Below are positions 3,537 to 21,880 of a DNA stretch of 22,948 nucleotides, one piece after another. This DNA is from an uncultured archaeon (GTDB lineage Archaea > Asgardarchaeota > Lokiarchaeia > Sigyniarchaeales > SOKP01), in contig CAZGJX010000071.1 in the NCBI GenBank assembly GCA_964525635.1, forward strand, positions 1 through 22,948, written 5' to 3'. Each line of letters starts with the position of its first letter. The first letter of the stretch is position 1. Under the pieces are notes generated by a model. It was not told the DNA's origin and ran no database searches. It saw nothing but the letters and a program-made list of their open reading frames with translations. Made by a program: the position numbers and the translations under genes.

Positions 3537-3833
3537 TTAATATCTTCTATCCTTACCAATTATGTTTACATTAAGAGCTTCTGGTCCTTTTCCATTATTA
3601 TTATCTATTTTTACATCAAATTCAACCTCATCTCCTTGATCGAGTTTCTTAAAACCATCCATTATAACATTTGAAAAATGAACAAATATGTCTTCTTCTT
3701 GGTCATTTATGGAGATGAAGCCAAATCCTTTTTTATAGTCGAACCATTATAATTTATCTTAGAAATTAAGATAAATTTTTACCCATCCGACTTTTCTATT
3801 GCTATTATCTAATTCATTCTTTTCTTCTGTCAT
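3537..3833 (-). CDS. cspA: Cold-shock domain protein, spliced: join(3833..3777,3746..3537), 88 aa
   Basis: Manual translation: MTEEKNELDNSNRKVGWVK|WFDYKKGFGFISINDQEEDIFVHFSNVIMDGFKKLDQGDEVEFDVKIDNNNGKGPEALNVNIIGKDRRY*. RNP-1 (KGFGFI) and RNP-2 (IFVHF) are intact. A 30-nt insert splits VK|WF. Absent from the ORF track. Confidence 0.9.
3747..3776 (-). other. Putative BHB/BHL mRNA intron (30 nt) in cspA
   Basis: Sequence ATTTATCTTAATTTCTAAGATAAATTATAA with two in-frame TAA. Inner helix TTTATCTTA/TAAGATAAA (9 bp); central helix GTAA/TTAT; bulges AA^A and AA^T; exon-exon helix AGTCGGA/TTCGACT. Confidence 0.85.
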
Positions 3834-4115
3834 TATATTTCATATAACAATTCTTTATTCGAATCTATTATTCTAAGATATATAAAAAAATTATATTTCA
3901 TTTTAATATATTTTTAATTATTCCATGTTTTTATACCATTAACTTTTCAAGATTAGTTATTCAAAATTCTATATTTTTCCTGTTTTATATACTATAATTA
4001 TCTCTAATTTTATTGAAAATAAGGGCTTTCATGAAAGTTAAAAGAATTAATGAAATCATTTCATATAATATAAAACAATAATAAATTAAACAATCTCTAA
4101 TTAAAATAAATAATA

Positions 4116-5477
4116 ATGAGTATTTTCGATAAAATTTTAGATATATATAGAGATAGTTATATCTGCAAATATTGTCTGGGCAGGATGTTTTCTTTACTAG
4201 CAACAGAAACCACTAATGAAGAAAGAGGTAAATCACTATTATTATCATTGACAATGGATAACCATAAACAATATCTTTCTGGAAATGAATCTAATAGAAA
4301 AATAGCAATTGAGAATTTACAAATTTTAGCTGAAAAAGCAAATTATCTTCCTGCTCAAAAAGTTTTAGAAAAAGAAGGTGTTTCAAATAAACTTATGAAT
4401 AATGAACTAAATTGCTATTTATGTAATAATATTTTTTTAAACCTTGAAGAATATATAAAGTATGCAAAAAATTATATTAAAGGAATAGAATTCAAGAATT
4501 TCTTAATAGGGACTAGTCCAAGCGCTAAAATTATCAATAGGGAAGATAAATTTAAAGCTAAACTTAATATTATAGAAGCAGAATCTTTTAAATCTCACCT
4601 TAATCGAGAAGTAGGAAAAAGATTATCAGAAGAAATTAATAGGCCTTCTGAATTTAATTATCCCGATCTCACAATAATTTACTCAATAAGTTTTAATTCT
4701 TTTTCAATACAATTACTTTTAAGATCAGTATTTATTTATGGAAGATATAAAAAGTTTTTACGTGGAATACCTCAAACACGTTGGCCTTGTCATAACTGTA
4801 AGGATGAAGGGTGTAAACTCTGTAATTTCACAGGTAAACAATATGAGACAAGTGTTGAAGAATTAATAAGTCCTGAATTCATTAAGAAATCTGTGGCAGA
4901 GAGTTCAAAATTCCATGGTGCTGGAAGAGAGGATATTGATGTGCGGATGTTAGGAACTGGTAGACCTTTTATTTTAGAACTTAAGAATCCAAAACTTAGA
5001 AGTTTAGATCTGGTTGAATTATTAGATAAAGTTAATATAATTAATAAAGATAAAGTTGAAATAATAAATCTTGAATATACAGATAAAAATCATGTTATTA
5101 AAATGAAGGAAAATGCAGAAAATACAAAAAAAACTTATAAAGCAATTGCAGAAAGTTCAAAAGAAGTTGGAATTACTGTTTTTCAAGAAAAATTAAACCA
5201 ATTAAAAAATATTTTTGAAAATAAAACAATTGACCAAAGAACACCACAAAGAGTAGCTCATCGAAGGGCAGATAAAATTAGAGATAAAAAAATCTATAAT
5301 ATTGAAGGAAAGTTTTTAAAATCAAATTTATTTGAATTTTTGATTGAGACTCAAGGAGGTACTTATATTAAGGAATTGATAAGTGGTGATGAAGGGAGAA
5401 CATCTCCATCATTCAGTGAAATCCTTGAAGTTCCATTGAAATGTATAGAATTAGATGTTTTAAATATTGATTATTGA
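4116..5477 (+). CDS. pus10: tRNA pseudouridine(54/55) synthase Pus10
   Basis: CKYCLGR N-terminus; GRYKKFLRGIPQTRW; catalytic FHGAGREDIDVRMLGTGRPF; QRTPQRVAHRR; GGTYIKELISGDEGRTSPS. Confidence 0.95.
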   Translation: MSIFDKILDIYRDSYICKYCLGRMFSLLATETTNEERGKSLLLSLTMDNHKQYLSGNESNRKIAIENLQILAEKANYLPAQKVLEKEGVSNKLMNNELNCYLCNNIFLNLEEYIKYAKNYIKGIEFKNFLIGTSPSAKIINREDKFKAKLNIIEAESFKSHLNREVGKRLSEEINRPSEFNYPDLTIIYSISFNSFSIQLLLRSVFIYGRYKKFLRGIPQTRWPCHNCKDEGCKLCNFTGKQYETSVEELISPEFIKKSVAESSKFHGAGREDIDVRMLGTGRPFILELKNPKLRSLDLVELLDKVNIINKDKVEIINLEYTDKNHVIKMKENAENTKKTYKAIAESSKEVGITVFQEKLNQLKNIFENKTIDQRTPQRVAHRRADKIRDKKIYNIEGKFLKSNLFEFLIETQGGTYIKELISGDEGRTSPSFSEILEVPLKCIELDVLNIDY

Positions 5478-5491
5478 AATATACATTCTTT

Positions 5492-6115
5492 TTAATCAGG
5501 GTTTTTTATACCATTATAAAGTAAATCTAATAAGAAATTTATTATATTTTTGAGTTTTCCTTCATCTTCTTGAATTCCTGGAAGTTGTTTATTAACAAAT
5601 AAAATCACTATTCCTTGAATAATTGACCAAATCGCAAGGTGAATTTTTCTTGGATCATCTTCACGAAATCGACCTTCTTTTTGGTTTTTAATTACTAAAC
5701 TTAACCATATTTTTGCTACTTCTTGAGACGATTCTAAAATAGAATGTGAACTATTATCATGCTGTTCTCTGAAAATAATTTTAATATAATTTGGATATTT
5801 TAATGCAAAACTGATATATGACCAACATAATTTTCCAAAACCACCATAAGGATCATTTGAAATATCATTTATCGACTTTTTTAAAACCTCAGCTAATAAG
5901 TTATATATTTCAACAATTAATTCATTAATTATATGATTCTTATCATTAAAATGGCGATATGCTGCAGTTGCAGTAACACCCACTCTTCTTGCGATTTCTC
6001 GTAAGCTTAAAGCATCAATTCCCTGTTCTCTAAGAATCTTCAATCCTGTTTTAACAAATTCTGTTTTTAAATCACCATGATGATAAGTATCTTTTTCTTT
6101 TTTCTTCATAATCAT
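5492..6115 (-). CDS. TetR/AcrR family transcriptional regulator (YHHGDL type)
   Basis: YHHGDLK N-terminus and HTH LSLREIARRVGVTATAAYRHF; divergent from an ABC operon. Confidence 0.92.
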   Translation of the reverse strand: MIMKKKEKDTYHHGDLKTEFVKTGLKILREQGIDALSLREIARRVGVTATAAYRHFNDKNHIINELIVEIYNLLAEVLKKSINDISNDPYGGFGKLCWSYISFALKYPNYIKIIFREQHDNSSHSILESSQEVAKIWLSLVIKNQKEGRFREDDPRKIHLAIWSIIQGIVILFVNKQLPGIQEDEGKLKNIINFLLDLLYNGIKNPD

Positions 6116-6154
6116 AATATATAAACATAAGGTTTGTACGTTTTTATAAAAATA

Positions 6155-6265
6155 TTAACATTGTTAACATAATATAGTTAATTTTGCTTATTATTAAAAA
6201 TTGGTCTATAGAAACTTAATATCTCTTTTTTAATATGTTAACATTGTAAAGTTAACAATATTAAC
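6155..6265. promoter_or_regulatory. Three TTAACA-N-TGTTAA-like palindromes, likely TetR operators
   Basis: TTAACATTGTTAA (6155-6167), TTAACATTGTAAA (6238-6250) and GTTAACAATATTAAC (6251-6265), all in the divergent tetR/ABC intergenic region. Confidence 0.7.
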
Positions 6266-6308
6266 TTTTCATATAAATTTAACAAACAATAAAAAATTTG
6301 AGAAAAAA

Positions 6309-7421
6309 ATGGTATCAATTTCGATAAAAAATATTCTACATGATAAAACACGATTTATTATTACAGTTATAGGAACTAGTCTAATTGTTAGCTTAATACT
6401 ATTTAACATAGGAATGATAATTGGAACAATCACACAAAACACAAGATATGTTAAAAGCGTTGATGCGGATTTATGGGTTATTGAAGAAGATGAAGATTTT
6501 TATAGTTTTTCTAAACTCCCGACATCAATGATAGATAGTATCAATACAATAGATGATGTTGATTTAGTGAGTGGATTAATGATTCAGGAATATAGACTAA
6601 AACATAATGGATATAAGAGTGAAAAAATCTCTATGATTGGATACAATATATCAAATCATATTGGAGGGCCATCAACTCTTATTTCAGGAAAGCACATCTC
6701 TAATGACTTTGAAATAATTATTGATCATAAATTTGCTCAAGAAAATAATCTGAAAATTAACAATAACATATCGATAACAGATCCTAAAACAGATGTAGAT
6801 TTTGACTTTTGGATAGTTGGATTAAGTGAAAGCCGTAGTCTAAGGGGTGATTATGGATTCATGAGTTATGATGCTGCTCAATCTATCAGTCCTTTAGTAA
6901 ATATCACTAATTTTATACTAATTCAAACTAATAATCCTAAACAAGTTCGAGATGACATATATAATATCATAAATGGAGTTGATGTACTTACTACAGGTAT
7001 GATTGTGGATGAAATTACTAGTTTTTGGTTGGGTGTAATGGGTAGTGGTAATATTTTTATGTGCGTTATAGCGATTATAATTGGGATTATAATCGCTGGG
7101 ATTACTTTATATACAGCTACGATCGAAAAGAGAAAAGAATATGGTGTTTTGAAAGCAATTGGAGCTAGAAATAGATATATATATAAATCGATTATTTTTC
7201 AATCTTTAACAATTATGATCTGCGCATTTATTGTAGCAATATTAGTGAGTCAACTATTATCATTGATCTTTACTATATTTGTAAGTAAAATGGAGATTTT
7301 ACTCAATCTTATAATTTATTTCTTTGTTTTTATGATTACTCTTATGATTGGAATTTTATCATCTTTGATTGCAATTAAACGTGTAGTAAAAATAGATCCA
7401 TTAATAGTATTTCAAGAATAG
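6309..7421 (+). CDS. ABC transporter permease, MacB/FtsX family
   Basis: N-terminal TM, large extracytoplasmic domain, three C-terminal TMs; EKRKEYGVLKAIGA and KIDPLIVF motifs. Confidence 0.9.
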   Translation: MVSISIKNILHDKTRFIITVIGTSLIVSLILFNIGMIIGTITQNTRYVKSVDADLWVIEEDEDFYSFSKLPTSMIDSINTIDDVDLVSGLMIQEYRLKHNGYKSEKISMIGYNISNHIGGPSTLISGKHISNDFEIIIDHKFAQENNLKINNNISITDPKTDVDFDFWIVGLSESRSLRGDYGFMSYDAAQSISPLVNITNFILIQTNNPKQVRDDIYNIINGVDVLTTGMIVDEITSFWLGVMGSGNIFMCVIAIIIGIIIAGITLYTATIEKRKEYGVLKAIGARNRYIYKSIIFQSLTIMICAFIVAILVSQLLSLIFTIFVSKMEILLNLIIYFFVFMITLMIGILSSLIAIKRVVKIDPLIVFQE

Positions 7422-7438
7422 AAAATTGAGGTGAAAAT

Positions 7439-8113
7439 ATGACGATTTTAAAATTAAGGAATCTTGTGAAGATTTTTGGAACAGATCATACTGCTATTAA
7501 GGCTGTTGATGATATATCTCTTGATCTTAAAAAAGGAGAAATTATTTTAATTTCTGGGCCAAGTGGATCAGGAAAAACTACATTACTTTCCATGATTGGA
7601 TGTTTATTAAGTCCAACATCAGGGGATATCATTATTGATAAAGAAAATATAACTAAATATCCTCAAAAAAAACTATGGAAAATTAGATTAAATCGAATAG
7701 GATTTATATTCCAACAATTTAATTTATTACAATCATTAACTGCCAGAGAAAATGTCCAAATTCCTTTACAATTAACAAGAAATAAGAAGAATTATATAAA
7801 AAAGAAAGCTGAAGAATTGTTAAGAGAACTAGGGCTAGAAAAGCGAATTAGCCATTTACCAAAGGAACTCAGTGGCGGGGAAAAACAACGTGTTAGTATA
7901 GCTCGTGCATTGATCAATAAACCGGATATAATCTTGGCAGATGAGCCAACAGCAAATTTAGATTCAAAATCAGGTCACATTGTCATTGAAATGACAAAAA
8001 AATTAGTAAAAAAACATGGATGTGCTATGATTATGGTGACTCATGACCATAGAATTGAAGATATAGCCGATAGAATTTTATTTATGGAGGATGGAAAAAT
8101 TTGGACAAATTAA
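7439..8113 (+). CDS. ABC transporter ATP-binding protein (LolD/MacB-like)
   Basis: GPSGSGKT, IGFIFQQFNL, LSGGEKQRV, ILADEPTANLD, VTHD; SD GAGGTGA upstream. Confidence 0.95.
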   Translation: MTILKLRNLVKIFGTDHTAIKAVDDISLDLKKGEIILISGPSGSGKTTLLSMIGCLLSPTSGDIIIDKENITKYPQKKLWKIRLNRIGFIFQQFNLLQSLTARENVQIPLQLTRNKKNYIKKKAEELLRELGLEKRISHLPKELSGGEKQRVSIARALINKPDIILADEPTANLDSKSGHIVIEMTKKLVKKHGCAMIMVTHDHRIEDIADRILFMEDGKIWTN

Positions 8114-8171
8114 ATAGTAATTATACTAACAGAGTAATAATAATAATAATTAATAAAAAAAGGGCAGAAAA

Positions 8172-8657
8172 ATGGATTACATTATTTCAAGTGTTATTAT
8201 AACTACCATTAAAACTATACCTATTTTAGTAGTTTTATTATGGCAAATGGGAATAAAAAATTGGTAGAAATGGCTTTTAATAATACCCGCAATTTTTCTG
8301 GTGGATTTAGATCATTTTATTTTGACAAATGTAATAGGTTTCGCTGCTGATCCTGCACCAGGTCAAAAAATATTACATATATTTCATACAGTGGAAATTG
8401 TTGTTATAGGAATTGTTTTTATTTTATTATATTATTTTTACATTGACCCTCTCAATGGACGCAATATAAAAGGATGGCTTTTTCCATCAGCTTCAGACTA
8501 TTCTAAATCTATACTGTACTATTTAGCTTGGACAATTCGTATTATACTCTTTGGATTTATTATTCATTGGCTTTTTGATCTTGCTATATATCCTTTCCAT
8601 CATAAATGGGATTATTTGTATATTTCAATTATAGAATATTTGATCAATCCAACTTAA
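8172..8657 (+). pseudogene. Membrane metal-dependent hydrolase-like gene (YdjM-like) with one in-frame TAG at 8265-8267
   Basis: ATG at 8172 is in frame with the annotated GTG at 8301: MDYIISSVIITTIKTIPILVVLLWQMGIKNW*KWLLIIPAIFLVDLDHF. Motifs DLDH, HIFH and HWLFD. Confidence 0.6.
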
Positions 8658-8799
8658 AAAAAATAATGAACTTCTGAATTTAATAATATAAAAATATGGA
8701 ATATTTAAAAATATCTAATTTTTTTTTTCCTTTCATTCTCTTAAAATGAAAAAATAAATAAATTATCATTCATGAACATTAATAAGAATACTATATAAT

Positions 8800-9120
8800 T
8801 TGGTGATTAAAATTACACTCCACAAGGGTTACAGAAATAAGACAAGAAAGAGATATAGAAAACACCCTCGAGAAAAGGGCCTTGGTCCTGTAGATAAATA
8901 TTTGTTGGATTATAAAACGGGTGATAAAGTAGATATTATCACAGATCCATCACAACACAAGCGGGGTTTGCCTCATCGACGATTTTATGGCAGGACAGGA
9001 ACTATTATTGGTTCGAAAGGAAGATGTTTGGAAGTAGAGGTGAAGCTTGGTAATTCCAAAAAGACATTAATTTTAGGAAAAGAACATATAAGACTTAATT
9101 ATATTTCCAAAAAAGATTAG
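8800..9120 (+). CDS. rpl21e: 50S ribosomal protein L21e (true start possibly ATT at 8812)
   Basis: HKGYRNKTR, GDKVDI, GLPHRRFYGRTG, KEHIR motifs; upstream of rpoF as in the conserved archaeal cluster. Confidence 0.95.
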   Translation: MVIKITLHKGYRNKTRKRYRKHPREKGLGPVDKYLLDYKTGDKVDIITDPSQHKRGLPHRRFYGRTGTIIGSKGRCLEVEVKLGNSKKTLILGKEHIRLNYISKKD

Positions 9121-9152
9121 AGTTTTTTTATTTAATTAAAAAAGGGGTATTT

Positions 9153-9518
9153 ATGTTTGGTCGAAAAATTGAAGAAAAATCTGTTTCTATACCAGAAGTC
9201 AAAAAAATTATGGAAAATATAAAGGAACAGATGACAAAAATCGATCCTGAAGAAGGTATGACGCATTTTCAAGATATCACTCATAATTATGTTGATAAAT
9301 TTACTAAAATGTCTCATAAAGATGCAATCAAAATAAAAAATTTTCTCATAGAGACTTATGAGATTGAAGAAGTTTATGCAATTAATATAGTGAATATCGA
9401 TCCTAAAACTATACCTGAATTAAGGATGATATTAGAAAAGAGTTATGTTGCCAAATCATTTGATGATGTTCAGCTTCAAAAGATTTTGTATCAAATTGAA
9501 GAATTAAAAACATCTTAG
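9153..9518 (+). CDS. rpoF: RNA polymerase subunit Rpo4 (RpoF)
   Basis: KIEEKSVSIPEVK, YVDKFTK, AINIVNIDPKTIPELRMIL; position between rpl21e and DUF655. Confidence 0.88.
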   Translation: MFGRKIEEKSVSIPEVKKIMENIKEQMTKIDPEEGMTHFQDITHNYVDKFTKMSHKDAIKIKNFLIETYEIEEVYAINIVNIDPKTIPELRMILEKSYVAKSFDDVQLQKILYQIEELKTS

Positions 9519-9679
9519 TTATTATTTTTTAAAATATAATTCTTAATTATAATTATTTTAGAACGAAGAATTTATAAATATAGAACGTTTTAACTTTAAA
9601 TGAACATCCTTGTTCAATCTTATTATTAAAAAAAAAAATATGGATACCAAAATAATAAAAAACAGGAAATTTAGTAATT

Positions 9680-10330
9680 ATGAATGGAAGAGCAAGAGAT
9701 CGATACAGAAGACCTCCCAGAAAATCTTTTCAAAAAGATGGATCTCGGAAGAAAAAACAATTCATAAAAAGAGAAAGAGATGTAATAGTCCTAGATCTCT
9801 TACCACATGGTCATCTTGAAGATGAGAAACCTAGTTGGGCGCGCTCGCCTCTCGCTCAGGTTATTACTTTTCCTGATTTTGTTCTTTATGAAGTGAAATT
9901 TAATAGAGACTCAGAAATTAAAGTTCAAGATAAAGATAAATTTGAAAAATTTACAGAATCACGTAAACTCAGTGAAGTTTTAAGAAAAATTGATTTTAAC
10001 GATCTAACTAATACATCAAAAGCTTTAATTGGGACGTTATTAGAAAAGGAAGTAATGAATTACGAAGAAGAATTTATAAATTGGATTAATAATGCGCAAT
10101 CTATAACACCTCGATTACATGCTCTAAAATTAATTCCTGGAATCGGCACAAAACATATGTGGGAAATCATTGAGGCTAGAAATCGCCAAAAATTCGTGAC
10201 TTTTAAAGATATTTCAGATAGAACAAGTATGTCAAGTCCAGCTAAGCAAATCACATTAAGAATAATAAAAGAATTGCAAAGAGAAGGAATAAAATATTAT
10301 CTTTTCAGTAAAACTAAGAGATATGAATAG
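9680..10330 (+). CDS. DUF655 family putative RNA-binding protein (HhH)
   Basis: VLDLLPHG, SITPRLHALKLIPGIGTKHMWEIIEAR, KYYLF; conserved position between rpoF and ksgA; basic N-terminal extension. Confidence 0.9.
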   Translation: MNGRARDRYRRPPRKSFQKDGSRKKKQFIKRERDVIVLDLLPHGHLEDEKPSWARSPLAQVITFPDFVLYEVKFNRDSEIKVQDKDKFEKFTESRKLSEVLRKIDFNDLTNTSKALIGTLLEKEVMNYEEEFINWINNAQSITPRLHALKLIPGIGTKHMWEIIEARNRQKFVTFKDISDRTSMSSPAKQITLRIIKELQREGIKYYLFSKTKRYE

Positions 10331-11168
10331 AGAACAAATACAACTTATTTTAAGGGATTTAGAATTTACTCCTAAGAAGAATTTAGGTCAGAACTTCTTA
10401 ATTAATGATTCTGTATTAACTCGTATAACTGAATTATCTAATCTCTCAAAAGAAGATAAAATTTTAGAAATTGGAGCTGGTTTGGGTGTCTTAACAGAAA
10501 TGCTTTTTGAAAAAACTAAATTAGTCTATGCATTTGAAATTGACACAACTTTATTTCAATATCTAAAAAAAAAATTTTCAAACAATAAAAATTTAAAATT
10601 ATTTAATAAAGATATATTAAAGAGCGATCCTCCTTTATGTGATAAAGTTATTTCAAACATACCATATACAATAACAGGTCAAATTTTTCAGAAAATTTTT
10701 TTTAATCCTAATCCTCCTCAAGGAATATTATTAATAGAAAAAGCAATTGCAAATCGTATATTTTATAATAATAAATACAAGAATTTTTCCAGAATTACAA
10801 TAACGGTAAATTCTTTTTTAGATCCCATTACCATGATTGATATTTCACCAAATTCCTTTTATCCTCATCCAAAAATAAAATTATCTTTGGTAAAACTTAA
10901 ACCTAAAAAAAAAATGCATCCTTTTCTTAAAAAGGAAGATACAATTAAGTTTTTCCTCAAATTTATTGCTGGTATAATGCCGTATAAGAATAAAAACATA
11001 GTAAATGCTATTGAATTATTTTTGAAAGGAATAAATAAAACCAATATAAAAAAAGATGAAATTTTAAGTTATTTAGAAAAACATAATTATCGAAATGATA
11101 AAGTATCTAAGTTTAAAATAAATCAATTTCCAGATTTATCTCAAATTGTATATAATTTAATTAATTAG
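10323..11168 (+). CDS. rsmA: 16S rRNA adenine dimethyltransferase KsgA/Dim1
   Basis: KNLGQNFL, ILEIGAGLGVLT, FEID, ISNIPYTIT, SFYPHPK. Confidence 0.95.
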   Translation: MNREQIQLILRDLEFTPKKNLGQNFLINDSVLTRITELSNLSKEDKILEIGAGLGVLTEMLFEKTKLVYAFEIDTTLFQYLKKKFSNNKNLKLFNKDILKSDPPLCDKVISNIPYTITGQIFQKIFFNPNPPQGILLIEKAIANRIFYNNKYKNFSRITITVNSFLDPITMIDISPNSFYPHPKIKLSLVKLKPKKKMHPFLKKEDTIKFFLKFIAGIMPYKNKNIVNAIELFLKGINKTNIKKDEILSYLEKHNYRNDKVSKFKINQFPDLSQIVYNLIN

Positions 11169-11177
11169 GAACTGAAA

Positions 11178-11879
11178 ATGAAAAAAACCTCATATTATCA
11201 AGATCCAATTATAGATTATAATAACAATCTGATCTATTTACCTTCAGATGATACATATCTAATTATTGACCATATTAAAAATAATCTTGATTTAGAATTT
11301 TTTGATGAAGTTAGATTAGAAAATATAAATAATATTTTAGATATGGGAACGGGAACAGGTATAATTGCAATCTTTTTTTTAATTATGATGCAAAAAAATC
11401 CTAACTTAAAAGCTAAAATATTTGCTTCTGATATTTTAGAAGAAGCAATAAATTGTGCGAAAGATAATGAAAAACTAAATGGTTTTAATAATCAAATTAA
11501 TTTTATTCATTCCAACCTCTTTGATTCATTCCCTAGTCATTTAAAAAAATTATTTGATATTATTATATTTAATCCCCCATATTTACCATCAATTTATGAA
11601 AATGTAAATGGAATTGAAAATCTAAAAGATAAAAACGATTACTGCTGGAATGGTGGGAAACATGGCAGTGAACTCTTTATAGAATTTCTGGATAATGTTA
11701 AAGAATTTTTAAACTTAAAACATAATAGTTATATTTATTATATATCATCATCAAGAATGGATTACAAAAATCTAAATAATAAAATAAAAGATTTAGGATA
11801 TAAAAATGAGATTTTAAAGAAAAAGCATTTTTTTTTTGAACATATTTTGTTAAATCGAATTAAAATTTCTAGCTCCTAA
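11178..11879 (+). CDS. HemK2/PrmC-like methyltransferase
   Basis: IYLPSDDT, LDMGTGTGI, FNPPYLP, WNGG; follows ksgA. Confidence 0.9.
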   Translation: MKKTSYYQDPIIDYNNNLIYLPSDDTYLIIDHIKNNLDLEFFDEVRLENINNILDMGTGTGIIAIFFLIMMQKNPNLKAKIFASDILEEAINCAKDNEKLNGFNNQINFIHSNLFDSFPSHLKKLFDIIIFNPPYLPSIYENVNGIENLKDKNDYCWNGGKHGSELFIEFLDNVKEFLNLKHNSYIYYISSSRMDYKNLNNKIKDLGYKNEILKKKHFFFEHILLNRIKISSS

Positions 11880-13156
11880 AAAGGTCTTCTATTTCTCCTT
11901 TTTTCTATCAAATTAACGCCATAAGCATTTAATTTGCGTTTGAGATTGTTAAATAGGAGATTAATTTCCTGAGGATTAAATACTGCTCGTTTATGGGCTT
12001 CAATTTGAGGTATTGGAAGTCCATAATGTTCATTCAAACTAGAAATTGGTAGAATTATTGAAGAAATTAAATCTACCTTTCTAGTTGCTTCTTCTAATTT
12101 ATGATTTTCCTCCATAAAAAATTCAATTCTACATGGAACATCATATTTAGTTGTTTTTATATAGAATGCATAAAAAGTATAAGGAAAATAATACGAGATT
12201 TCTTTTTTTAATCCTGTATCTCTAATTTTTTCAATTTCTCTTTTGCAATTAAATATGCAACTTCTCTCATTTTTATTTAGTAATCGATTGAATAAATCTA
12301 GATCAGAAAAGTATTTTATTACTTCTCTGTAATTAATATCGAGAAGTTCACTCAAATAAGAATAATTTGGTTTAAGAAGTTGAATGGCATCTCGAAGAAG
12401 GTTGCATAAAGCAGAAGTTCTTGTATCTTTTATAGACCCAATTATAATAATACCTTTTTCTCTACAATTTTGATAAAGTTTTTGATATTCTTTCAGTAAT
12501 ATATCATATTTATTAGAAATTAAAGGATCTTTTGAAAATAATAAGTTTATTGGCATAATCACAACTGAACCATCAATTATTATGAAATCTATGTCGGTTG
12601 AGTTATTTATCAATTTATTAATTAATTGTATTTCCATAAAATTCATGTCTAGGGAGGTACTTATATCAGTATATTGCTCATTATTGATCAATAAATTCCC
12701 CTTGATCATATAATTGTTAAAACCATTTAAATCAGGAAAATATTCGATTTTTGCATCTTTATTATCATGGAAGTGATATTTTACAATTATTGCTTTTAAA
12801 AAAGAAAAATCTATATCCATAAACTTTTTTATAACAGAACTACCATCAACACTAACTACGTTAAGTCCTCTGATGTTTGATGGTTGGATTTTTTTTTTTA
12901 AATACTTTTCTTTAATAGAAAATTTCGGATGCTCTATAAAATCCTTAAAATTTAATTTCTCCATATTTTTAATTATAAGATTGGCAAATTTTCTTTTTAA
13001 TTTATCAATTTCATTACATTCTAAAGCAATATTCTCTAGATCTTCCAACAATAATCGTTCTTTAGTTACACCAGATATTCTTGAATCTTTGTTAGCATAA
13101 TTTTGTTCAAAATTTCTATTTTGCTTAATTAAAAAATCTCTTCCTTTTATCATCAA
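11876..13156 (-). CDS. nurA: NurA-family nuclease
   Basis: VSVDGS, IIIDGS, GSIKD, YGLPIPQIEAHKRA motifs; 4-nt convergent overlap with the HemK-like gene. Confidence 0.8.
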   Translation of the reverse strand: MMIKGRDFLIKQNRNFEQNYANKDSRISGVTKERLLLEDLENIALECNEIDKLKRKFANLIIKNMEKLNFKDFIEHPKFSIKEKYLKKKIQPSNIRGLNVVSVDGSSVIKKFMDIDFSFLKAIIVKYHFHDNKDAKIEYFPDLNGFNNYMIKGNLLINNEQYTDISTSLDMNFMEIQLINKLINNSTDIDFIIIDGSVVIMPINLLFSKDPLISNKYDILLKEYQKLYQNCREKGIIIIGSIKDTRTSALCNLLRDAIQLLKPNYSYLSELLDINYREVIKYFSDLDLFNRLLNKNERSCIFNCKREIEKIRDTGLKKEISYYFPYTFYAFYIKTTKYDVPCRIEFFMEENHKLEEATRKVDLISSIILPISSLNEHYGLPIPQIEAHKRAVFNPQEINLLFNNLKRKLNAYGVNLIEKRRNRRPF

Positions 13157-13237
13157 TAATTATTAATAAACATATCAGTTTTAATAACTAAGAGTGATTA
13201 AATTTTTTGATTTAATAAACGTATAACTCAAATAAAA

Positions 13238-13888
13238 ATGGTTATTCAACTTGGACAAAATAATTGGATTCTAATATCACTTTCATTTTTGGAAATTCTT
13301 TTTATCATTATCCCTCCATTCATCGCTTCCAAAATTGAAAAAAATAAAATTAAAGACCAACTTATTGATATAGGATTCCATAGACTTAGAAAGCCACTAT
13401 CAATTAAATTTTATGAAATCTACTCTGGAGTAATATTTAGCATTTTATTCTATGCTATAGGGGCTTACATTTTATTCTTCTTCTTCAATCTTTCAACTAC
13501 ATTATTTGGACAAGAATTTGTTGAAACAGGTCAAGGAGGGGCCATATCGACATCTCCAATTGAACCAAACTATCTTCAATTAACAATTATTATTATTCAA
13601 CATGTAATTATTATTAGTATATGTGAAGAAGCGTTTTTTAGAAGTTTTCTTATTAAAAAACTAAAGAATAAATTTAAAATTTATGCATGTATCTTAATTT
13701 CCTCTCTATGTTTCGCAATTTATCATGTTCCTCCCTTTTTAGTTCCACTTGAAACAACTGTTACATATTTTGGCTATTATTTTACATTTGGAGTGATGTT
13801 ATCATGTATTTTTGTTTTATATAAAGAATCATTATTGCCTGGGATAATTGCTCATGGATTTTTTAATATTTTAATAATTATTTTATAA
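13238..13888 (+). CDS. CPBP family intramembrane glutamic endopeptidase (CAAX/Abi)
   Basis: Intact EEAFFR, FAIYH and IIAHGFFN motifs; multiple TMs. Confidence 0.9.
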   Translation: MVIQLGQNNWILISLSFLEILFIIIPPFIASKIEKNKIKDQLIDIGFHRLRKPLSIKFYEIYSGVIFSILFYAIGAYILFFFFNLSTTLFGQEFVETGQGGAISTSPIEPNYLQLTIIIIQHVIIISICEEAFFRSFLIKKLKNKFKIYACILISSLCFAIYHVPPFLVPLETTVTYFGYYFTFGVMLSCIFVLYKESLLPGIIAHGFFNILIIIL

Positions 13889-14180
13889 TATTTTGTTTTT
13901 TCCTTATTTATGTTGAATAAATTGAGTGTTTATTAAAGAGGATTGTAAATTTATTCATTTTAAAAATAGGATTACTTAAGATTATTAATATCAAAATTCA
14001 TTTATGATAATAATAATTTTTATTTATTTTTAGAAATATTAGTAAATTAATTTCTAATAATAAATAAATAATCATGAATATATTATTAATAACCAAGACA
14101 TAAGTCATATTTAATATATAAAGAAAAATTTCTAAATATTACTAATTGTAGAATTATTAATTAAATTTCTGGTAAGCTTA

Positions 14181-14723
14181 TTGACAGATTTTGATTATAC
14201 TTTTAAGGTAATGATGGTTGGTGATGCTTCAGTTGGAAAAACCTCTCTTACAATTAGATTTATATCTGGCTCATTTTTAGAAGATCTAAAACTAACGATC
14301 GGCGTAGATTTCTATAGTAAAATAACACTTTTTAAGGAGAAGCGAGTTAAATATCAAATATGGGATTTTGGAGGCGAGCAGAGATTCAGGTTCTTATTAC
14401 CCCAATATTGCAGAGGTGCAAATGCTGCATTTTACCTATACGATATAACTAAACCTGTTACTCTAAACCATTTACCAGATTGGACAAATATTATACGTGA
14501 ACATGCTGGAGATATACCAATTATATTAATTGGATCTAAAGTTGATTTAGAAAAATATAGAGGTATACCAAGAGAAGAAGGGTTACGAGCGAAAGAAAAA
14601 TATAATTTAGCATCATTTCTTGAGCTATCTTCAAAGACGGGTAAAAATGTTGAGAAAGCATTTAGAATAATGACGAAAATATTATTCAAAAAATATGTAT
14701 ATGTTGATAGAGGAGAATTCTAA
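14181..14723 (+). CDS. Rab-like small GTPase (Asgard eukaryotic signature protein)
   Basis: GDASVGKT, TIGVDF, IWDFGGEQRF, GSKVD, SSKTGKNVEKAF; no C-terminal prenylation cysteines. Confidence 0.9.
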   Translation: MTDFDYTFKVMMVGDASVGKTSLTIRFISGSFLEDLKLTIGVDFYSKITLFKEKRVKYQIWDFGGEQRFRFLLPQYCRGANAAFYLYDITKPVTLNHLPDWTNIIREHAGDIPIILIGSKVDLEKYRGIPREEGLRAKEKYNLASFLELSSKTGKNVEKAFRIMTKILFKKYVYVDRGEF

Positions 14724-14801
14724 TCAATATTAATATCAAATTAACTTAAAATTGGATAAAATTTAGCTACTAAAAAAAAAAGGAAAAAAATAAAATTAAG
14801 G

Positions 14802-15644
14802 TTAATCAATTAATTCCCTTTCAAGAATTTTTTCAAATTCCTTATCAGAAATAAAACCCTTACTTTGCATAATATCTATAATCTGTTTAATAACATTTGG
14901 GGCACATTGTACTTCAGATATTTGTGTATAAAGAGCATCTATAGTGTTAGTCAAATCATTTATTTTTTCAATTTTTGCTTCTAAATCACTTTCCAACTTT
15001 TCTATTATGTGGTCTTTACTAATAATAGCACGATTTAAATCTTGTTTTGTTATTCTTATTTGTTCGTCTTTGACTATTAATTCCTCTTTTATTCTCCTCA
15101 TTTCTTTGCTTGTTTCTGGAACGGCTTTTTCAAAATTTTCGACTAAATTGTCTAATCTTACATTTATTTGATTAATTTCCGATTTATTGATTGTAAATTC
15201 ATTGAGATGTTCCGTTTTAAATTTTTGTAGCTCGTATCTTATAAGTTCAATTTCTTGAGAAATTTTAGTTATTGTCATCATCTGGGAAAAGCTTTCTTTT
15301 CTAGGAATTTTAGTTTTTTCTTGAATCTTTGGTAGTGGTCCTTCATAATATTTTATTTTTTTATCCATTTTTTCAATTTGCTTTTCTGCAGTTTCTAGTT
15401 TCTCTCTTACTTCAGATAATTTTGATTTTAGCGCCTTTTCATTTGTTGAAATTCTTTCTATTATTTCAGTAAAATTATTTTCAGTCATTAAATATTTTTC
15501 TTTCGATTTATTCAATCTCTCCATGAAGCGCGCTAGATCTTCTTCCAAATCCGAGATTTGTTCTTTTAACTTTAATAATTCTTTCCCTTTTATCTTTTGT
15601 ATCGAATTAGGTCTTGAAAAGGCCTTTTCCCAATTAATAGTAAT
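14802..15644 (-). CDS. Coiled-coil hypothetical protein (frame open upstream of the annotated TTG 15548; start possibly ATT 15644)
   Basis: Heptad-rich E/K/L sequence. The frame stays open to 15650, directly after an SD-like GGGTGAT (15656-15650). Confidence 0.65.
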   Translation of the reverse strand: MTINWEKAFSRPNSIQKIKGKELLKLKEQISDLEEDLARFMERLNKSKEKYLMTENNFTEIIERISTNEKALKSKLSEVREKLETAEKQIEKMDKKIKYYEGPLPKIQEKTKIPRKESFSQMMTITKISQEIELIRYELQKFKTEHLNEFTINKSEINQINVRLDNLVENFEKAVPETSKEMRRIKEELIVKDEQIRITKQDLNRAIISKDHIIEKLESDLEAKIEKINDLTNTIDALYTQISEVQCAPNVIKQIIDIMQSKGFISDKEFEKILERELID

Positions 15645-16188
15645 AATAAATCACCCAGTTTTAGAATATTATTTTTAAATTAGTAGTTGAAGAATAATTA
15701 TTACACTTTTATTAATAAATTTTTATTAATTATTGAATTCAAATTTATTAATTTATATATAATAAATATTTCTCATTTTATTTATTATTATTCATTAATT
15801 TTGTAACAATCTATAAAATGAAACAAGAATTGAAGCGACATAACTTAATATCCTCCTTTAAATATATGATCCTTTTATTTACTATTCCAAAACCAATACT
15901 TCAAATAAGGGTTTAAACGGAAGTACTAGATAGTTACTATCACTAGATTATAAACATCATTACTGCAGAGTAAATTTTCATCAAATCATATAGTGAATTT
16001 CACTAGTAAAAAATTTTTTTTCTATCAATGAGTAAGTTTTTTGTCGTATTAATTGTATGAATTTTATTGCTCGGATCAACCAACACATTTATATAGAACA
16101 ATTACTAATTTAATTATAAGATAATAAAAATTATCTAAAAACAATAAACAAAAAAAAAAATATTTAACAAGTGGAGGAATGAATTAAA

Positions 16189-16398
16189 ATGGGAGCATTT
16201 GCTTGGAGCCCTCTAAGGGCATTAATGAAAAAAGCTGGAGCAGAAATTGTAAGTAGAGCCGCTGTTGATAAATTAATGGACTACTTAGAAGAATATGCAA
16301 AAGAATTAACTGGATGTGCTTTAGACATTGCTAAGCACAGCGGAAGAAAGAAAGTCACTTCAGACGATATGAAGATAGCTATCGATCTAGTCATTTAA
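16189..16398 (+). CDS. Archaeal histone (HMf-like, tailless)
   Basis: PLRALMKKAGAEIVS...AKHSGRKKVTSDD histone fold; SD GGAGG upstream. Confidence 0.92.
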   Translation: MGAFAWSPLRALMKKAGAEIVSRAAVDKLMDYLEEYAKELTGCALDIAKHSGRKKVTSDDMKIAIDLVI

Positions 16399-16408
16399 GA
16401 CTTCTGCT

Positions 16409-16460
16409 CTTCTATTTTTTATTTTTTTTTTTATTTTTTATTTTATTTAATGTTTTTTGA
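16409..16460 (+). terminator. Oligo-T archaeal terminator after the histone gene
   Basis: Long T-tracts immediately downstream of the stop codon. Confidence 0.5.
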
Positions 16461-16681
16461 TTCTAACATATATATTTTTCTCTAATATATAATATTAAAT
16501 CTTTTTCGATTTGAATAAGGTTAAGATTACCTATGAGAATTATATGAATTTTAGATATCTTATTTATCAAAATAATTTCAATAAAAAAAATTTAAAAATC
16601 TCAATTTATAAATATCTGAAGTTAATTCTATTAATTAACAATAAATCTAAACTAAGTATAATATTTTTTCAATAGAATATA

Positions 16682-17101
16682 ATGCTAGATATTGTATTAA
16701 TTCAACATAATAAGACAGGTTTAAGTCTGTTTGAATATCGTCAAGAACATACTAAAATAAGTTTAGAACATTCGGATATTTTTAGTGGATTTCTTTCTGC
16801 TATACAAAATATTACACATGAATTGGATATTGGAAAAGTTAATTTAATTTCAACAGGAGGTAAAAAAGGTCATAATTGTATTATAGTTCCAAGAGATCCA
16901 ATCAATATTGTATTGCTTGTTGATCAAGAGGATTCAATTAAATTTTGGAGAGAAACTGGCAATAAAATTGCACAAGAATTTATTAAGAAATATCATAAAT
17001 CTTTTGATCCTCATAATATATCACAATTTAAGAATTTTGAATTTATTTTAAAAAAAATAGTTGATATGCATAACTATTTCACTTTTTTAGATAAAAAATG
17101 A
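16682..17101 (+). CDS. Longin-like domain protein (Asgard type)
   Basis: N-terminal beta hairpin (IVLIQHNKTGLSLFEY), helix SDIFSGFLSAIQNITHEL, three strands and C-terminal helices; pattern recognised by eye. Confidence 0.55.
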   Translation: MLDIVLIQHNKTGLSLFEYRQEHTKISLEHSDIFSGFLSAIQNITHELDIGKVNLISTGGKKGHNCIIVPRDPINIVLLVDQEDSIKFWRETGNKIAQEFIKKYHKSFDPHNISQFKNFEFILKKIVDMHNYFTFLDKK

Positions 17102-17342
17102 AAAACCATAATCTAAAATACCAATACCAATACCTATTACCAAAAGTTATAACATAATTTCATCTATATCCTACCAAAAAATTTTTATTTTTTGCCTGAT
17201 TTAAGATAATATAGTGGAGTACTCATTAACTAATTCTCTAATGTATTTCAATTTTATTTTAAAAAAAAAAAAGAAAATCAACCATGATTATAAATAAGTA
17301 TAAATTAATTCAATTAAAATTAAAAAAGGATGCCTATTTCTT

Positions 17343-20300
17343 ATGAGCTATACATTCTCAAGAACTAAATTAATAGAGAAAATTAAGTTTGGGCTTCTGA
17401 GTCCCGACGAAATCAGAAAAATGTCATCTGCAAGGATCATCACGGCAGATACATATGATGAAGATGGACTGCCGATCCCTTCCGGTTTGATGGATCAACG
17501 GTTGGGAACGATTGAGCCGGGTCAGAGATGCCAAACCTGTGGAAATCTTGTATCAAATTGTATGGGGCACTTCGGACATTAAATTTCTTTTATGAAAGCA
17601 TTTCGCTTTATTTGTCTAAATCGAGTTGGCCCGTCCAGTTATCCACGTAGGCTATTCTAAAAAAGTATTAAAAATATTGAGATCGATATGTCCAGAATGT
17701 TCAAGATTAATGCTTTCTGAAGAAGCTAAAGTAAACCTTCAAAAAGAACAACAATTACATCATAAACTCTCCTATGAAGGGGATGATGATATTACTAAAA
17801 TTGTCTTTAAAAGAGCGAGAAAAAATAAAATATGTCCTTATTGTGGTGCTAAGAAAAAAAAGATAATTTTGGAAAAACCAACTACTTTCTATGAAGAAGA
17901 AGAAGCTAAAGGCTCTCGACGATTAACACCCATAGAAATTAGAGAACGAATGAAAAAAATGATGGATGTAGATCTTCGAGTTTTAGGAATATCACCACAA
18001 AATGCAAGAATGGAATGGGTTGTTTTCACTGTTTTACCAATTCCTCCTGTATGTGCTCGACCTTCAATTACACTAGATAGTGGTATACGCTCTGAAGATG
18101 ATTTAACACATAAACTTGTAGATGTAATTCGAATTAATCAAAGATTAAGAGAAAATATAGATGCTGGAGCACCACACTTGATAGTTGAGGACTTATGGGA
18201 ACTATTACAATATCATATCACAACATACTTTGATAATCAAGTATCTGGAATCCCTCCTGCTAGACATCGCTCTGGTAGAGCATTAAGGACACTAACACAG
18301 AGATTAAAAGGAAAAGAAGGGCGTTTCAGGAGCAATCTCAGTGGAAAGCGTGTAGATTTTTCAGCTAGGAGTGTTATTTCTCCGAATCCACATATAAGTA
18401 TTAATGATGTTGGTGTTCCACAAAAAATAGCTAAAATATTAACTATTCCAACTAATGTAAATGATTGGAATATTGAACAGATGAAACAACTAGTGTTAAA
18501 TGGACCCAATAAACACCCTGGAGCGAATTATATTATTAGGAATGATAGACGAAGAATAGATCTTCGTTATGTTAAAAATAGAAAAATAATCGCAGACATG
18601 CTAGCACCAGGATTTACTGTTGAAAGACATTTAAACACTGGAGATTTAGTATTATTTAATCGACAACCATCGCTACACAGAATGTCGATTATGGCTCATG
18701 AAGTAAAAATTATGGATGGTAAAACATTTCGTTTAAATCTTACCGTATGCCCTCCTTATAATGCAGACTTCGATGGTGATGAAATGAACCTTCATGTCCC
18801 TCAAAGTGAAGAAGCAAGAACAGAAGCAGAATTATTACTAAAAGTTCAAGAACATATATTATCTCCTCGTTTTGGTGGTCCAATTTTGGGGGGAATTCAA
18901 GATTTTATATCAAGTATATTTCAATTTACGGGGTTGGATTCTTTATATGATGTTAAAGACACTTTAAAATTACTCTTTATGGGAGGAATCTTCGATTTAC
19001 ATCCCGATTTTGATTTAAAAAATATCAAACCAATCAAAACTGAACCTGAACCAATGTACTCTGGTAAACAAATTTTTAGCACACTTTTACCTAACGATTT
19101 AAATTTAAGATTGAGATCAAAATTCTGTAAAAAATGCTTTATTAAAAATGGAGAAAAATGTAAAGAAGAAAAGTGTGAATATGATGCATATGTAACAATT
19201 AAAAATGGTGAACTACTTACAGGTACCATTGATGAGAATTCATTTGGTGCAATGCAATCAAATAGTATTCTTCAAAGAATAATTAAGGACCATGGAAACG
19301 CAACGGGTAGAGAATTTTTAGATAACGCTACTAGAATGCTTCTTTATGTTATTAGACAAAATGGTATAACAATGGGACTCGATGAAGTATTTGTCAAAGG
19401 TGAAGCATTTGAACATATTCAAAAAGTATTACATGACGCAACTGATGAATCAAAACGTCTTATAAAAGCATTTAGAGAAAATGATAATAAAATCTTAAAA
19501 AGAGCACCTGGACGGTCATTAAAAGAAACTTTAGAATTACGAATTAGACAAGTTCTTGCTGAAGCGCGTAAAAAAGCAGAAGAATTAGCTTCACATTATA
19601 TTGGAGATGATGCTCACTCAGTTATTATGACTAAATCTGGAGCAAGAGGAAATATATTAAATTTAGGACAAATGTCAGCAGTTGTTGGACAACAAGCTAT
19701 CAGAGGTGAAAGGATAAATAGAGGTTATTCTTCAAGAACTCTTCCACATTTTAAAGTAGATGATTTAACACCAAAAGCTAGAGGATTTGTAGAACAATCC
19801 TATAGAAATGGACTTGAACCTGCGGGCTTCTTCTTCCATGCTATGGGCGGTAGAGAGGGCTTAGTGGACACTGCGGTAAGGACATCAACGAGCGGTTATA
19901 TGCAAAGGCGCTTAGTTAACGCTTTACAAGATATGGTTATAGAAAATGATGGAACTGTCCGCAATTCAGATAAAAACATTATTCAATTCAGATTTGGAGA
20001 TGATTCAGTAAATCCTCAACACACAGATCATGGTGCTGCCGTTAACCTAGATGTCCTATTACTTAAAGCAAAAACACTTGATTTAGAAGAAATTAAACAT
20101 AAAGGTAAGAAACCTGTAGACACCAAATCCAAAAAACCTACACCAGAAAAAGAAGCCAAACTTAAGCCTTCAACAACGGCAACTACACCTAAATCAACAA
20201 CAAAGAAACCTACACCTAAACCATCAACAAAGAAATCAACTAAAGCTCCTGATGAAGATTCATTACAAGAAAAATTTAAAGAGGAAACTGGAAAAAATGC

Positions 20301-20370
20301 GGTTTGGCGTGGTAAAATAACTCAGCAATATATTGAGTGGAAAGAGCAAAACTATGGAATTAAGGAATAA
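17343..20370 (+). CDS. rpoA1: RNA polymerase subunit Rpo1N (A'), spliced: join(17343..17579,17620..20370), 995 aa
   Basis: [26 protein letters not shown]|[38 protein letters not shown]. The two ORF-track pieces join into one gene when 40 nt are removed. Confidence 0.95.
17580..17619 (+). other. Putative BHB/BHL mRNA intron (40 nt) in rpoA1
   Basis: Sequence TAAATTTCTTTTATGAAAGCATTTCGCTTTATTTGTCTAA. Central helix GGAC(17574-77)/GTCT(17614-17); bulges AT^T and AA^A; inner helix AAAT/ATTT; hairpin AAAGC-ATTTC-GCTTT. Excision gives GGA CAT ATC GAG TTG = GHIEL. Confidence 0.88.
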
Positions 20371-20644
20371 AAGAATAGATAGTTGTCAGACATATTGATA
20401 GAGACTAAATATTTTAATTAAAAAACATTATTTCTTTTTTTTTTCTTATAAATTTAAATAAAACATTCAATAAATATTAAAAATAAAATCAAATTCTATT
20501 TCCAAATTATATCAATCGAAAAATATTAATTTTATAATTCATATCAACTAGTAAGCATATGTCTAGTTACTCATTTTTTTTAAAATTTACAGAAATTCAT
20601 AATCATATAAATTATGTTAATTAATTTAATTGAGGTTTAATTAA

Positions 20645-21880
20645 ATGACAAAAGTTACAACTCAAATGTTGAATAGATCTTTAAAAGAATTAGAAGATGA
20701 TGGAATTCCAAAGGATTTAGTTGACAAGATCCGGAATAAAATAAAAGATGAAGATTTGGAAGAAGAACAACTTGAATACCTTCTCAATAAAGTATTTATC
20801 AATTTCAATAATGCAATTGTTGAAGCTTCTGAACCTGTAGGAACTGTAGCTGCACAATCGATTGGTGAACCTGGAACACAAATTTTATTGCAATTGGCAA
20901 TATAAGTGGAAATGACACTAAGAACCTTTCACTACGCAGGAGTGGAAGAATTCTCAGTAACTCAGGGTTTACCTCGTCTGATTGAGATAGTGGATGCACG
21001 TCGATTTCCTTCTACTCCAAACATGACAATCTTTTTGGATAAAGATCACTGTAAGGATGAGAATGAAGCAATTAAAGTTCACAATAGGATTGAACAAATT
21101 AGAATTGAACAAATTAGTTCAGAAGTGGATCTGGATTTTGTTAATTGGAATATTGTTATTAATTTAATACCTAAAATCTGTGATAAAAAGGGAATTGATA
21201 TCGAAAAGATTCCTGAGATCTTAAAACGATATAAAAAGAAAGGTTCGATAAAAAGAGAGGGAAATAAAATAATTATCGATCCTGGAATTGAAGACTTACA
21301 ACAACTTCAAAAACTGCGTGAAAAAATACTTAAAAAAGTTGTTAAAGGTATAAGAGGAGTTAAAAGAGGTTTATTAACACCTTCTGATGATGGTAATGAA
21401 TGGGTCATTAAAACAGAAGGGACAAATATGGTGGGTGTTGTTCAAATAGAAGGTGTTGATGTTACAAGAACTACCTCAAATCATATTCATGAAGTTGAAA
21501 AATTGTTTGGAATTGAGGCCGCAAGAGCTCTTATTATTGAAGAGGCTAAAAAGGTACTTGAACAACAAGGTTTAGATGTCGATTTAAGGCATTTATTAAT
21601 CCTTTCTGATTTAATGTGTGGAACGGGCGCAATTCAATCTATTGGAAGGCATGGTATTTCTGGAGCAAAATCAAGTGTGTTTGCAAGAGCTGCTTTTGAG
21701 GTTACTGTTAATCAATTACTAGATGCTGGTTTATACGGTGAAGAGGAGCGTTTACTAGGTATTCCGGAGAATGTTATAGTAGGACAGGTCTGCCCAATAG
21801 GAACTGGTCGCGTATCCATACAATTCGATTTAGATAAAAATCTAGAAATCTTAAAAGGAAGGAATATCCAAAAAAATTAA
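20645..21880 (+). CDS. rpoA2: RNA polymerase subunit Rpo1C (A''), spliced: join(20645..20881,20912..21880), 401 aa
   Basis: EPVGTVAAQSIGEPGTQ|MTLRTFHYAGV (trigger loop), VTQGLPRLIEIVDA, RAAFE, ENVIVGQ, GTG. Confidence 0.95.
20882..20911 (+). other. Putative BHB/BHL mRNA intron (30 nt) in rpoA2
   Basis: Sequence ATTTTATTGCAATTGGCAATATAAGTGGAA with an in-frame TAA. Inner stem TT/AA plus TATTGC/GCAATA; central helix ACAC/GTGG (3 of 4 paired); both bulges AA^A. Excision gives CAA ATG = Q-M. Confidence 0.85.

Follow-up and report, generated by a model that had tools for sequence, protein, structure and literature searches.

Introns of the bulge-helix-bulge (BHB) type inside archaeal coding sequences have been documented only for the crenarchaeal cbf5 gene (PMC2738675, PMC7714728), and the hosts of the cbf5 pre-mRNA intron are Crenarchaeota, namely Aeropyrum, Sulfolobales and Desulfurococcales (Watanabe 2002; Yokobori 2009, PMC2738675). 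The mRNA of Haloferax volcanii HVO_1309, which has a BHB intron in its 5' untranslated region, serves as substrate for the tRNA splicing endonuclease, as demonstrated in vivo as well as in vitro (PMC7714728). Papers on introns of Asgard archaea treat tRNA only, without mention of mRNA introns (PMC11291895; 10.64898/2026.10.13.758758), and in the searchable literature we came across no account of BHB introns in mRNAs of these archaea. Here we analyzed a DNA stretch of 22,948 nt (the window), corresponding to contig C71 of an archaeal genome (G000), in which three genes are interrupted by short inserts: cspA, encoding a cold-shock domain, and rpoA1 and rpoA2, encoding the RNA polymerase subunits RpoA' and RpoA''. 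The comparison of these genes with their orthologs indicates that the inserts are very probably BHB mRNA introns whose splicing is carried out by EndA, the tRNA splicing endonuclease, together with the RNA ligase RtcB; for the rpoA2 insert on its own our confidence is somewhat lower.

The genome is metagenome-assembled and comprises 4.45 Mb on 245 contigs with a GC content of ~25% and a completeness scored at 100%. Its closest public relatives are metagenome-assembled genomes of the Promethearchaeota/Promethearchaeia, i.e., Loki-type Asgard archaea, which bears out the Asgard-like host proposed in a first-pass annotation of the window. Metagenomes containing DNA of this stretch derived from salt marsh.

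Structure of the three interrupted genes

The first-pass annotation had reported AT-rich inserts of 30-40 nt with in-frame stop codons in cspA, rpoA1 and rpoA2, and all three were found where it had put them. Exon 1 of rpoA1 (17343..17579, plus strand) ends with CMGHFGH and matches the Pfam family Rpb1_1 at profile positions 2-73. It is followed by an insert of 40 nt, which starts with an in-frame TAA (17580..17619), and by exon 2 (17620..20370), which matches Rpb1_1 at positions 74-312 and Rpb1 domains 2-5. On the same strand, exon 1 of rpoA2 (20645..20881) ends with SIGEPGTQ (Rpb1_5, profile 66-88) and is separated by an insert of 30 nt with an in-frame TAA (20882..20911) from exon 2 (20912..21880), which begins with MTLRTFHYAGV, matches Rpb1_5 at positions 89-265 and is the single match in G000. 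Profile positions are unbroken over both inserts. The cspA gene lies on the minus strand: exon 1 (3777..3833, ATG at 3833-3831) encodes MTEEKNELDNSNRKVGWVK, the insert of 30 nt contains an in-frame TAA (3747..3776), and exon 2 (3537..3746, stop codon at 3537-3539) begins with WFDYKKGFGF and comprises the cold-shock domain (Pfam CSD, E 7e-22, profile 7-64), its first residue corresponding to profile position 7. The limits of the rpoA1 insert are supported by same-site introns with covariation and by bridging DNA contigs, those of the cspA insert by sequence reading, fold and same-site introns in the relatives G018 and G007, and those of the rpoA2 insert by sequence reading, minimum-free-energy fold and a bridging DNA contig.

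Joining of the exons at GGACAT|ATCGAG, ACACAA|ATGACA and GTAAAA|TGGTTC rebuilds GHFGH|IELARP in rpoA1, GEPGTQ|MTLRTF in rpoA2 and GWVK|WFDY in cspA, respectively. The first two junctions are identical to those of intronless orthologs and invariant in every relative examined, and the cspA orthologs join G(H/I/Y/F)VK directly to WFD. The motif GEPGTQ|MTLRTF presumably lies in the trigger-loop region.

The splice motifs were described by a geometry rule, according to which a 4-bp central helix lies between two 3-nt bulges and the cut falls after the second bulge base; registers were limited to those restoring the protein. For rpoA1 one register is possible. It has 4/4 pairs between the 5' strand 17574-17577 (GGAC) and the 3' strand 17614-17617 (GTCT), bulges at 17578-17580 (AT|T) and 17618-17620 (AA|A), an inner helix of 17581-17584 with 17610-17613 and a hairpin of 17595-17599 with 17605-17609. 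The best of three registers in cspA likewise gives 4/4 pairs (3782-3779, GTAA, with 3752-3749, TTAT, minus strand), with bulges at 3778-3776 (AA|A) and 3748-3746 (AA|T) and an inner stem of 9 bp (3775-3767 with 3761-3753). For rpoA2 the best of five registers reaches 3/4 pairs (20876-20879, ACAC, with 20906-20909, GTGG); the bulges are located at 20880-20882 (AA|A) and 20910-20912 (AA|A), and an inner helix (20883-20884 with 20904-20905) is followed by a 6-bp stem (20886-20891 with 20897-20902). All three introns have an inner helix. The outer helix comprises 8 bp with one mismatch in cspA; in the two polymerase genes, as read by eye from the sequence, it does not exceed 1-3 bp.

By geometry and by comparison with orthologs, cutting after the second bulge base restores both the reading frame and the conserved motif in all three genes, in agreement with the first-pass annotation. 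The architecture it had assigned to all of them, a 4-bp helix with 3-nt bulges and an intron hairpin, was recovered with the reservation that the rpoA2 helix is paired at three of four positions. Phase 0, described there as constant, applies to these three genes but is no general rule, with phases 1 and 2 occurring in relatives and other genes. Within the ten introns examined in G000 and relatives, nine have 4/4 helix pairs in the frame-restoring register with a second-base cut; with the 25% GC of this genome, 4/4 pairs are expected by chance with a probability of 0.0275 per fixed register. For the 40-nt core of rpoA2, minimum-free-energy folding yields precisely the predicted BHB structure, and the folding energy of the cspA intron is strong (z -4.3 to -5.4). 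Because their outer helix is weak or absent, the predicted rpoA1 and rpoA2 motifs are classified as relaxed HBh'/bulge-helix-loop forms, which are known as substrates of broad-specificity EndA types only (PMC5829648).

Other classes of intervening elements were considered as well. Inteins, which are open in-frame inserts encoding a splicing domain, were ruled out as the identity of the three inserts, which are 30-40 nt long and contain stop codons. Group I and group II introns have a ribozyme core of hundreds of nucleotides; they were ruled out by the insert length and by the lack of any Rfam match in the window. Searches for copies of the introns elsewhere in G000 returned only low-complexity AT matches, and the introns thus do not form a family of repeated sequences.

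Recurrence and covariation in relatives

The rpoA1 gene was matched in 128 of 135 family genomes, G000 included, and the junction was read in ~40 of them. Introns at the identical GH|IE site occur in G000 (40 nt), in G145 (31 nt) and in eight relatives with 30 nt each (G005, G016, G105, G097, G063, G055, G061 and G094). These site-1 introns span five genera, and each carrier has congeners without the intron. For a covariation test the eight 30-nt introns, which represent four genera and align without gaps, were scored for a structure of a 4-bp central helix, a 3-nt bulge, a 9-bp stem and a 5-nt loop. Paired cells amounted to 91.3%, compared with 72.5% in shuffles, and two-sided changes were detected in 10 of 13 pairs, a number reached by 0 of 500 shuffles; when the 3' partners were slid along, pairing fell to 30-47%. 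The central helices are GGAC/GTCT, GGGC/GCCC or GGGC/GTCT among the genomes. Their third pair is A-U, G-C or G-U, in step with the exonic glycine codon, whose third base varies synonymously, and the rpoA1 intron therefore tracks its exon.

The same relation was observed in cspA, where at two sites the intron has changed along with synonymous substitutions in the exon. At site A (K|W) introns are present in G000 (30 nt), G018 (30 nt) and G007 (53 nt), and the helix GTAA/TTAT of G000 is replaced by GTGA/TCAC in the other two, a compensatory change. Site B is located five codons downstream in phase 2 and carries introns in G005 and G017, with the helices CCGC/GCGG and TCGT/GCGA. Ten cspA orthologs are without interruption at sites A and B.

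A second rpoA1 site, 4 nt downstream of the first and in phase 1, contains an intron in G015, G088, G107, G061 and G094. In G015 (L022), G088 (L158) and G107 (L164) only this site is occupied, by introns of 50-81 nt. Two introns of 30 and ~35 nt surround a 4-nt micro-exon, ATAG, in G061 (L159) and G094 (L162), and the central helix of the second intron (ATAT/GTAT) is complete only once the first has been removed, which implies ordered splicing of rpoA1 in these two genomes.

For rpoA2 an intron was found in none of 37 relatives and in none of 57 further Promethearchaeota loci. Judged from this comparison, the rpoA2 intron is a recent gain, unique to this species.

In some relatives, rpoA2 contains an intein of ~530 aa that includes a LAGLIDADG domain. 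It is inserted between M and T of GTQM|TLRTFH, one codon downstream of the mini-intron site of G000, and LAGLIDADG as well as intein-splicing domains were confirmed in G017. It was detected in five relatives (four by sequence, G037 presumably, judged from its long open frame) and in four further loci, two sets which may overlap; the intein loci are L043 (G021), L045 (G017), L052 (G008) and L053 (G024), each at locus position ~1-1500. With a mini-intron in G000 and an intein in relatives, two kinds of intervening element target one invariant rpoA2 motif.

Further observations concern the surroundings of rpoA1. The genes of the window include those for Pus10, L21e, RpoF, KsgA, NurA, a Ras GTPase, a histone, RpoA', RpoA'', L30e and NusA. 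Upstream of rpoA1 (16100-17340) a histone-fold gene and an uncharacterized ORF of 139 aa are located, and not rpoB. The usual archaeal gene order is rpoH-rpoB-rpoA1, which would accordingly be broken in G000. The C-terminus of RpoA' (20010-20370) has a low-complexity tail of ~70 aa rich in lysine, threonine and proline, after which a module of ~40 aa ends the protein; the same module terminates two other ORFs of G000, on contigs C36 and C13.

Gene integrity and alternative explanations

The inserts might be recent disruptive insertions, the genes then being pseudogenes or a defective population variant which resembles a BHB arrangement by chance. This would be in line with the presence of the rpoA2 insert in no relative, and BHB-like geometry arises by chance at ~3% per register. 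It is contradicted by the state of the genes. Both rpoA1 and rpoA2 are essential, and a check for intact second copies, as suggested in the first-pass annotation, revealed none of either in this genome scored as 100% complete. No other lesions were detected in them. Compared with the congener G001, dN/dS is 0.04-0.05 for rpoA1 and 0.06 for rpoA2 on both sides of the introns at a dS >1, and rpoA1 exon 1 combines 100% protein identity with 81% nucleotide identity. Furthermore, independently built contigs span the introns without a gap, two of them at rpoA1 (X2 record 6, X3 record 15) and one at rpoA2 (X4 record 24). These contigs originate from three other samples, and an intron-free or gapped variant of any of the three introns was not seen among the contigs of other runs. 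Since the rpoA1 intron has also been kept with compensatory changes over five genera, we regard disruptive insertion as very unlikely.

A similarly low probability is attributed to split genes, whose halves would be translated separately and assemble afterwards. In archaea RpoA already consists of two polypeptides, A' and A'', and the idea is mainly conceivable for rpoA2, where exon 2 begins with ATG, an intronic GTG is situated two codons upstream and the insert, confined to this genome, has the weakest BHB motif of the three. Yet the minimum-free-energy structure of the rpoA2 core is the BHB itself, the breaks fall inside the invariant motifs of both polymerase genes, the products of exon 1 would end in junk tails, and cspA exon 2 begins with TGG and has no start codon nearby.

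Even less probable is programmed translational bypassing, by which ribosomes would hop the gap of 30-40 nt on an unspliced RNA, as in T4 gene 60 or the yeast mitochondrial byp elements. Insert size (27-55 nt in known cases) and AT-richness fit, and so do the stop codon directly after the last codon of rpoA1 exon 1 and the hairpin within the gap. Matched take-off and landing codons are missing, as can be seen from CAT...TAA|ATC, CAA...GAA|ATG and AAA...TAA|TGG, and bypassing leaves both the covariation between exon 1 and the 3' end of the intron and the fixed geometry of 4 bp with 3-nt bulges unexplained. We know of no archaeal examples of bypassing.

An assembly or sequencing artifact, for which a metagenome-assembled genome on 245 contigs could give occasion, is hardly worth considering, as both polymerase inserts are spanned with 0 gaps by contigs assembled independently from other runs and equivalent inserts were found at the same sites in many assemblies from other projects.

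Splicing enzymes, genomic extent and comparison with known systems

The enzymes required for the removal of BHB introns are encoded in G000 by two EndA paralogs of 203 and 206 aa (C18 and C105), each with an N-terminal and a catalytic domain, and by one RtcB. The alpha-like EndA resembles the catalytic subunit of Aeropyrum pernix and aligns nearly gap-free over its whole length with 3P1Z_B of this species (E 4e-37); a KPR-containing stretch in this alignment may be the Crenarchaea-specific loop. The second paralog is more divergent and beta-like. Asgard EndA has been described as an (alpha-beta)2 enzyme with an L1 loop linked to broad substrate specificity (PMC5829648).

Removal of the inserts as BHB introns by EndA and RtcB, the central claim of the first-pass annotation, is supported by geometry, covariation, compensatory changes, single-copy status, dN/dS values, DNA contigs and the enzyme genes. 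In the proposed mechanism the 3' ends of exon 1 and of the intron would form a 4-bp helix in the pre-mRNA, with a 3-nt bulge on each side, and the intron hairpin would close the inner side of this helix. A two-subunit (alpha-beta)2 EndA is predicted to cleave both bulges behind their second base, whereupon RtcB would join the exons, restoring GHFGH-IELARP, GEPGTQ-MTLRTF and GWVK-WFDY, and would probably circularize the intron. Translation of unspliced mRNA would end at the intron stop codon, so that synthesis of the full-length protein would depend on splicing.

To look for further cases, the long ORFs of G000 were compared with G000 itself by tblastn, a homology-first search which works for multi-copy families only. 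Five further introns of 30-32 nt were identified on other contigs by homology and subsequent BHB geometry, each with 4/4 central-helix pairs and located in or beside a conserved motif. They interrupt genes for a thioredoxin (WCGPC|K; C1:45712-45743, minus strand), a Ras GTPase (WDI|AGQ; C27:33768-33797, plus strand), a ThiF/E1-like protein (GVGAL|GCE; C178:567-596, plus strand), a POR subunit (C6:7457-7486, plus strand) and a DeoC-family aldolase (C3:4428-4457, plus strand). Pfam coordinates run seamlessly over the thioredoxin and Ras introns; for ThiF, POR and DeoC exon 2 matches the profile from about position 30 onward, exon 1 being too short for a score. Noise in the self-search derived from repeat proteins, transposase-like frameshifts and selenocysteine-like TGA sites. 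The output of ARAGORN was too noisy for multiply interrupted archaeal tRNAs and was not used. Within the Ras family an in-frame-stop insert was present in one of 74 matches in G000, five partial matches not all being resolved. Based on this frequency the genome-wide intron rate is probably around 1% and the window unusually rich in introns. The bias toward conserved motifs may in part reflect how inserts get noticed.

Interruptions probably of a different kind were observed on contigs C109 (~8158 and 9732, minus strand) and C87 (~9595 and 11164, minus strand), where single in-frame stops occur at conserved positions, e.g., DDCSI*ILGP and VAG*YRGECD. The affected genes, which by eye we take to be of the Hdr/Mvh redox type, are matched by paralogs with E <1e-100, and the stops look like selenocysteine codons, not introns.

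Several points weigh against the interpretation as spliced introns. Its basis is a comparison of DNA sequences, from which cleavage and ligation themselves are deduced. Taken by themselves, the rpoA1 and rpoA2 cores show no unusual folding energy (z -1.1 and -1.5), and the case consequently stands on geometry and genome comparison, not on thermodynamics. With their weak or absent outer helix, the relaxed motifs need a broad-specificity enzyme for cleavage. The weakest case is rpoA2, with 3/4 central pairs and no orthologous intron for covariation. The bridging contigs share habitat and year and possibly go back to a single sampling campaign. No contig bridging the cspA intron was present among the records listed; for rpoA1 and rpoA2, independent contigs speak against the assembly artifact considered in the first-pass annotation. 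Finally, a census of G000 by reading frame and BHB geometry yielded no enrichment of in-frame over out-of-frame candidates at any stringency; BHB-like geometry alone is common by chance in DNA of 25% GC and swamps the signal, and the filter missed real introns with relaxed inner helices, e.g., that of the Ras gene. A scan for split genes with BHB folds, likewise envisaged at the outset, was in this way productive when started from homology and without excess when started from frame and structure. The expectation of routine mRNA splicing with many more cases genome-wide is partly borne out by the five additional introns and tempered by the single Ras case.

The patchy distribution, with an rpoA1 site common to five genera and an rpoA2 intron unique to this species, makes the introns look like neutral or selfish passengers which are gained and lost; a regulatory role is no more than a possibility. 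In a wider perspective, we think there is a reasonable case, considerably less firm than that for the three introns themselves, that Promethearchaeota need EndA and RtcB as a matter of routine to splice dozens of mRNAs, among them those of the catalytic subunit of RNA polymerase, and that their mini-introns are actively gained and lost and can be stacked, as around the 4-nt micro-exon in rpoA1 of relatives, which would make splicing ordered. This would represent a mode of split-gene expression by protein enzymes in the closest prokaryotic relatives of eukaryotes; a link to the origins of eukaryotic introns is speculation. If the interpretation is true, RNA polymerase cannot be made without tRNA-type splicing in the lineage nearest to eukaryotes, and mRNA maturation must be timed apart from coupled translation or shielded against it. 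Gene callers would misread such genes as split or as pseudogenes, protein genes of Asgard archaea would lend themselves to studies of how introns are gained and lost, and mRNA processing before the spliceosome would become an experimentally testable question.

Compared with the described systems, the introns most closely resemble that of cbf5, as they are short, of BHB type and located in coding sequence, with a hetero-oligomeric broad-specificity EndA in the host and a patchy pattern of gain and loss. They differ by their Asgard lineage, by their occurrence in other genes, among these the two that together encode the largest RNA polymerase subunit, by being present several times in one genome (at least eight verified, of which three lie within 23 kb) and by a modal length of 30 nt, and they are known from sequence alone. 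As for HVO_1309, an mRNA would be the substrate of the tRNA splicing endonuclease; the HVO_1309 intron, however, lies in an untranslated leader, breaks no reading frame and belongs to a euryarchaeon with an alpha'2-type enzyme. Motif, size range, predicted enzymes and repeated lineage-specific gains at BHB-capable sites are shared with the tRNA introns of Asgard archaea, whereas the hosts here are mRNAs, so that splicing must precede or compete with translation. The bypass elements of T4 gene 60 and of Magnusiomyces mitochondria (byps) are likewise short, AT-rich, stop-containing inserts in essential coding sequences, but act at the ribosome, need matched take-off and landing codons and have no exon-intron helix. 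In the unconventional HAC1/XBP1 splicing of eukaryotes, cleavage by IRE1 is followed by joining through a tRNA ligase or RtcB. This process resembles the one proposed here in being independent of the spliceosome, with a protein endonuclease acting at stem-loops and an RNA ligase joining the ends around a short mRNA intron (reviewed in PMC13149111), and differs in that its nuclease is IRE1 instead of EndA and that it serves as a regulated stress switch in one gene.

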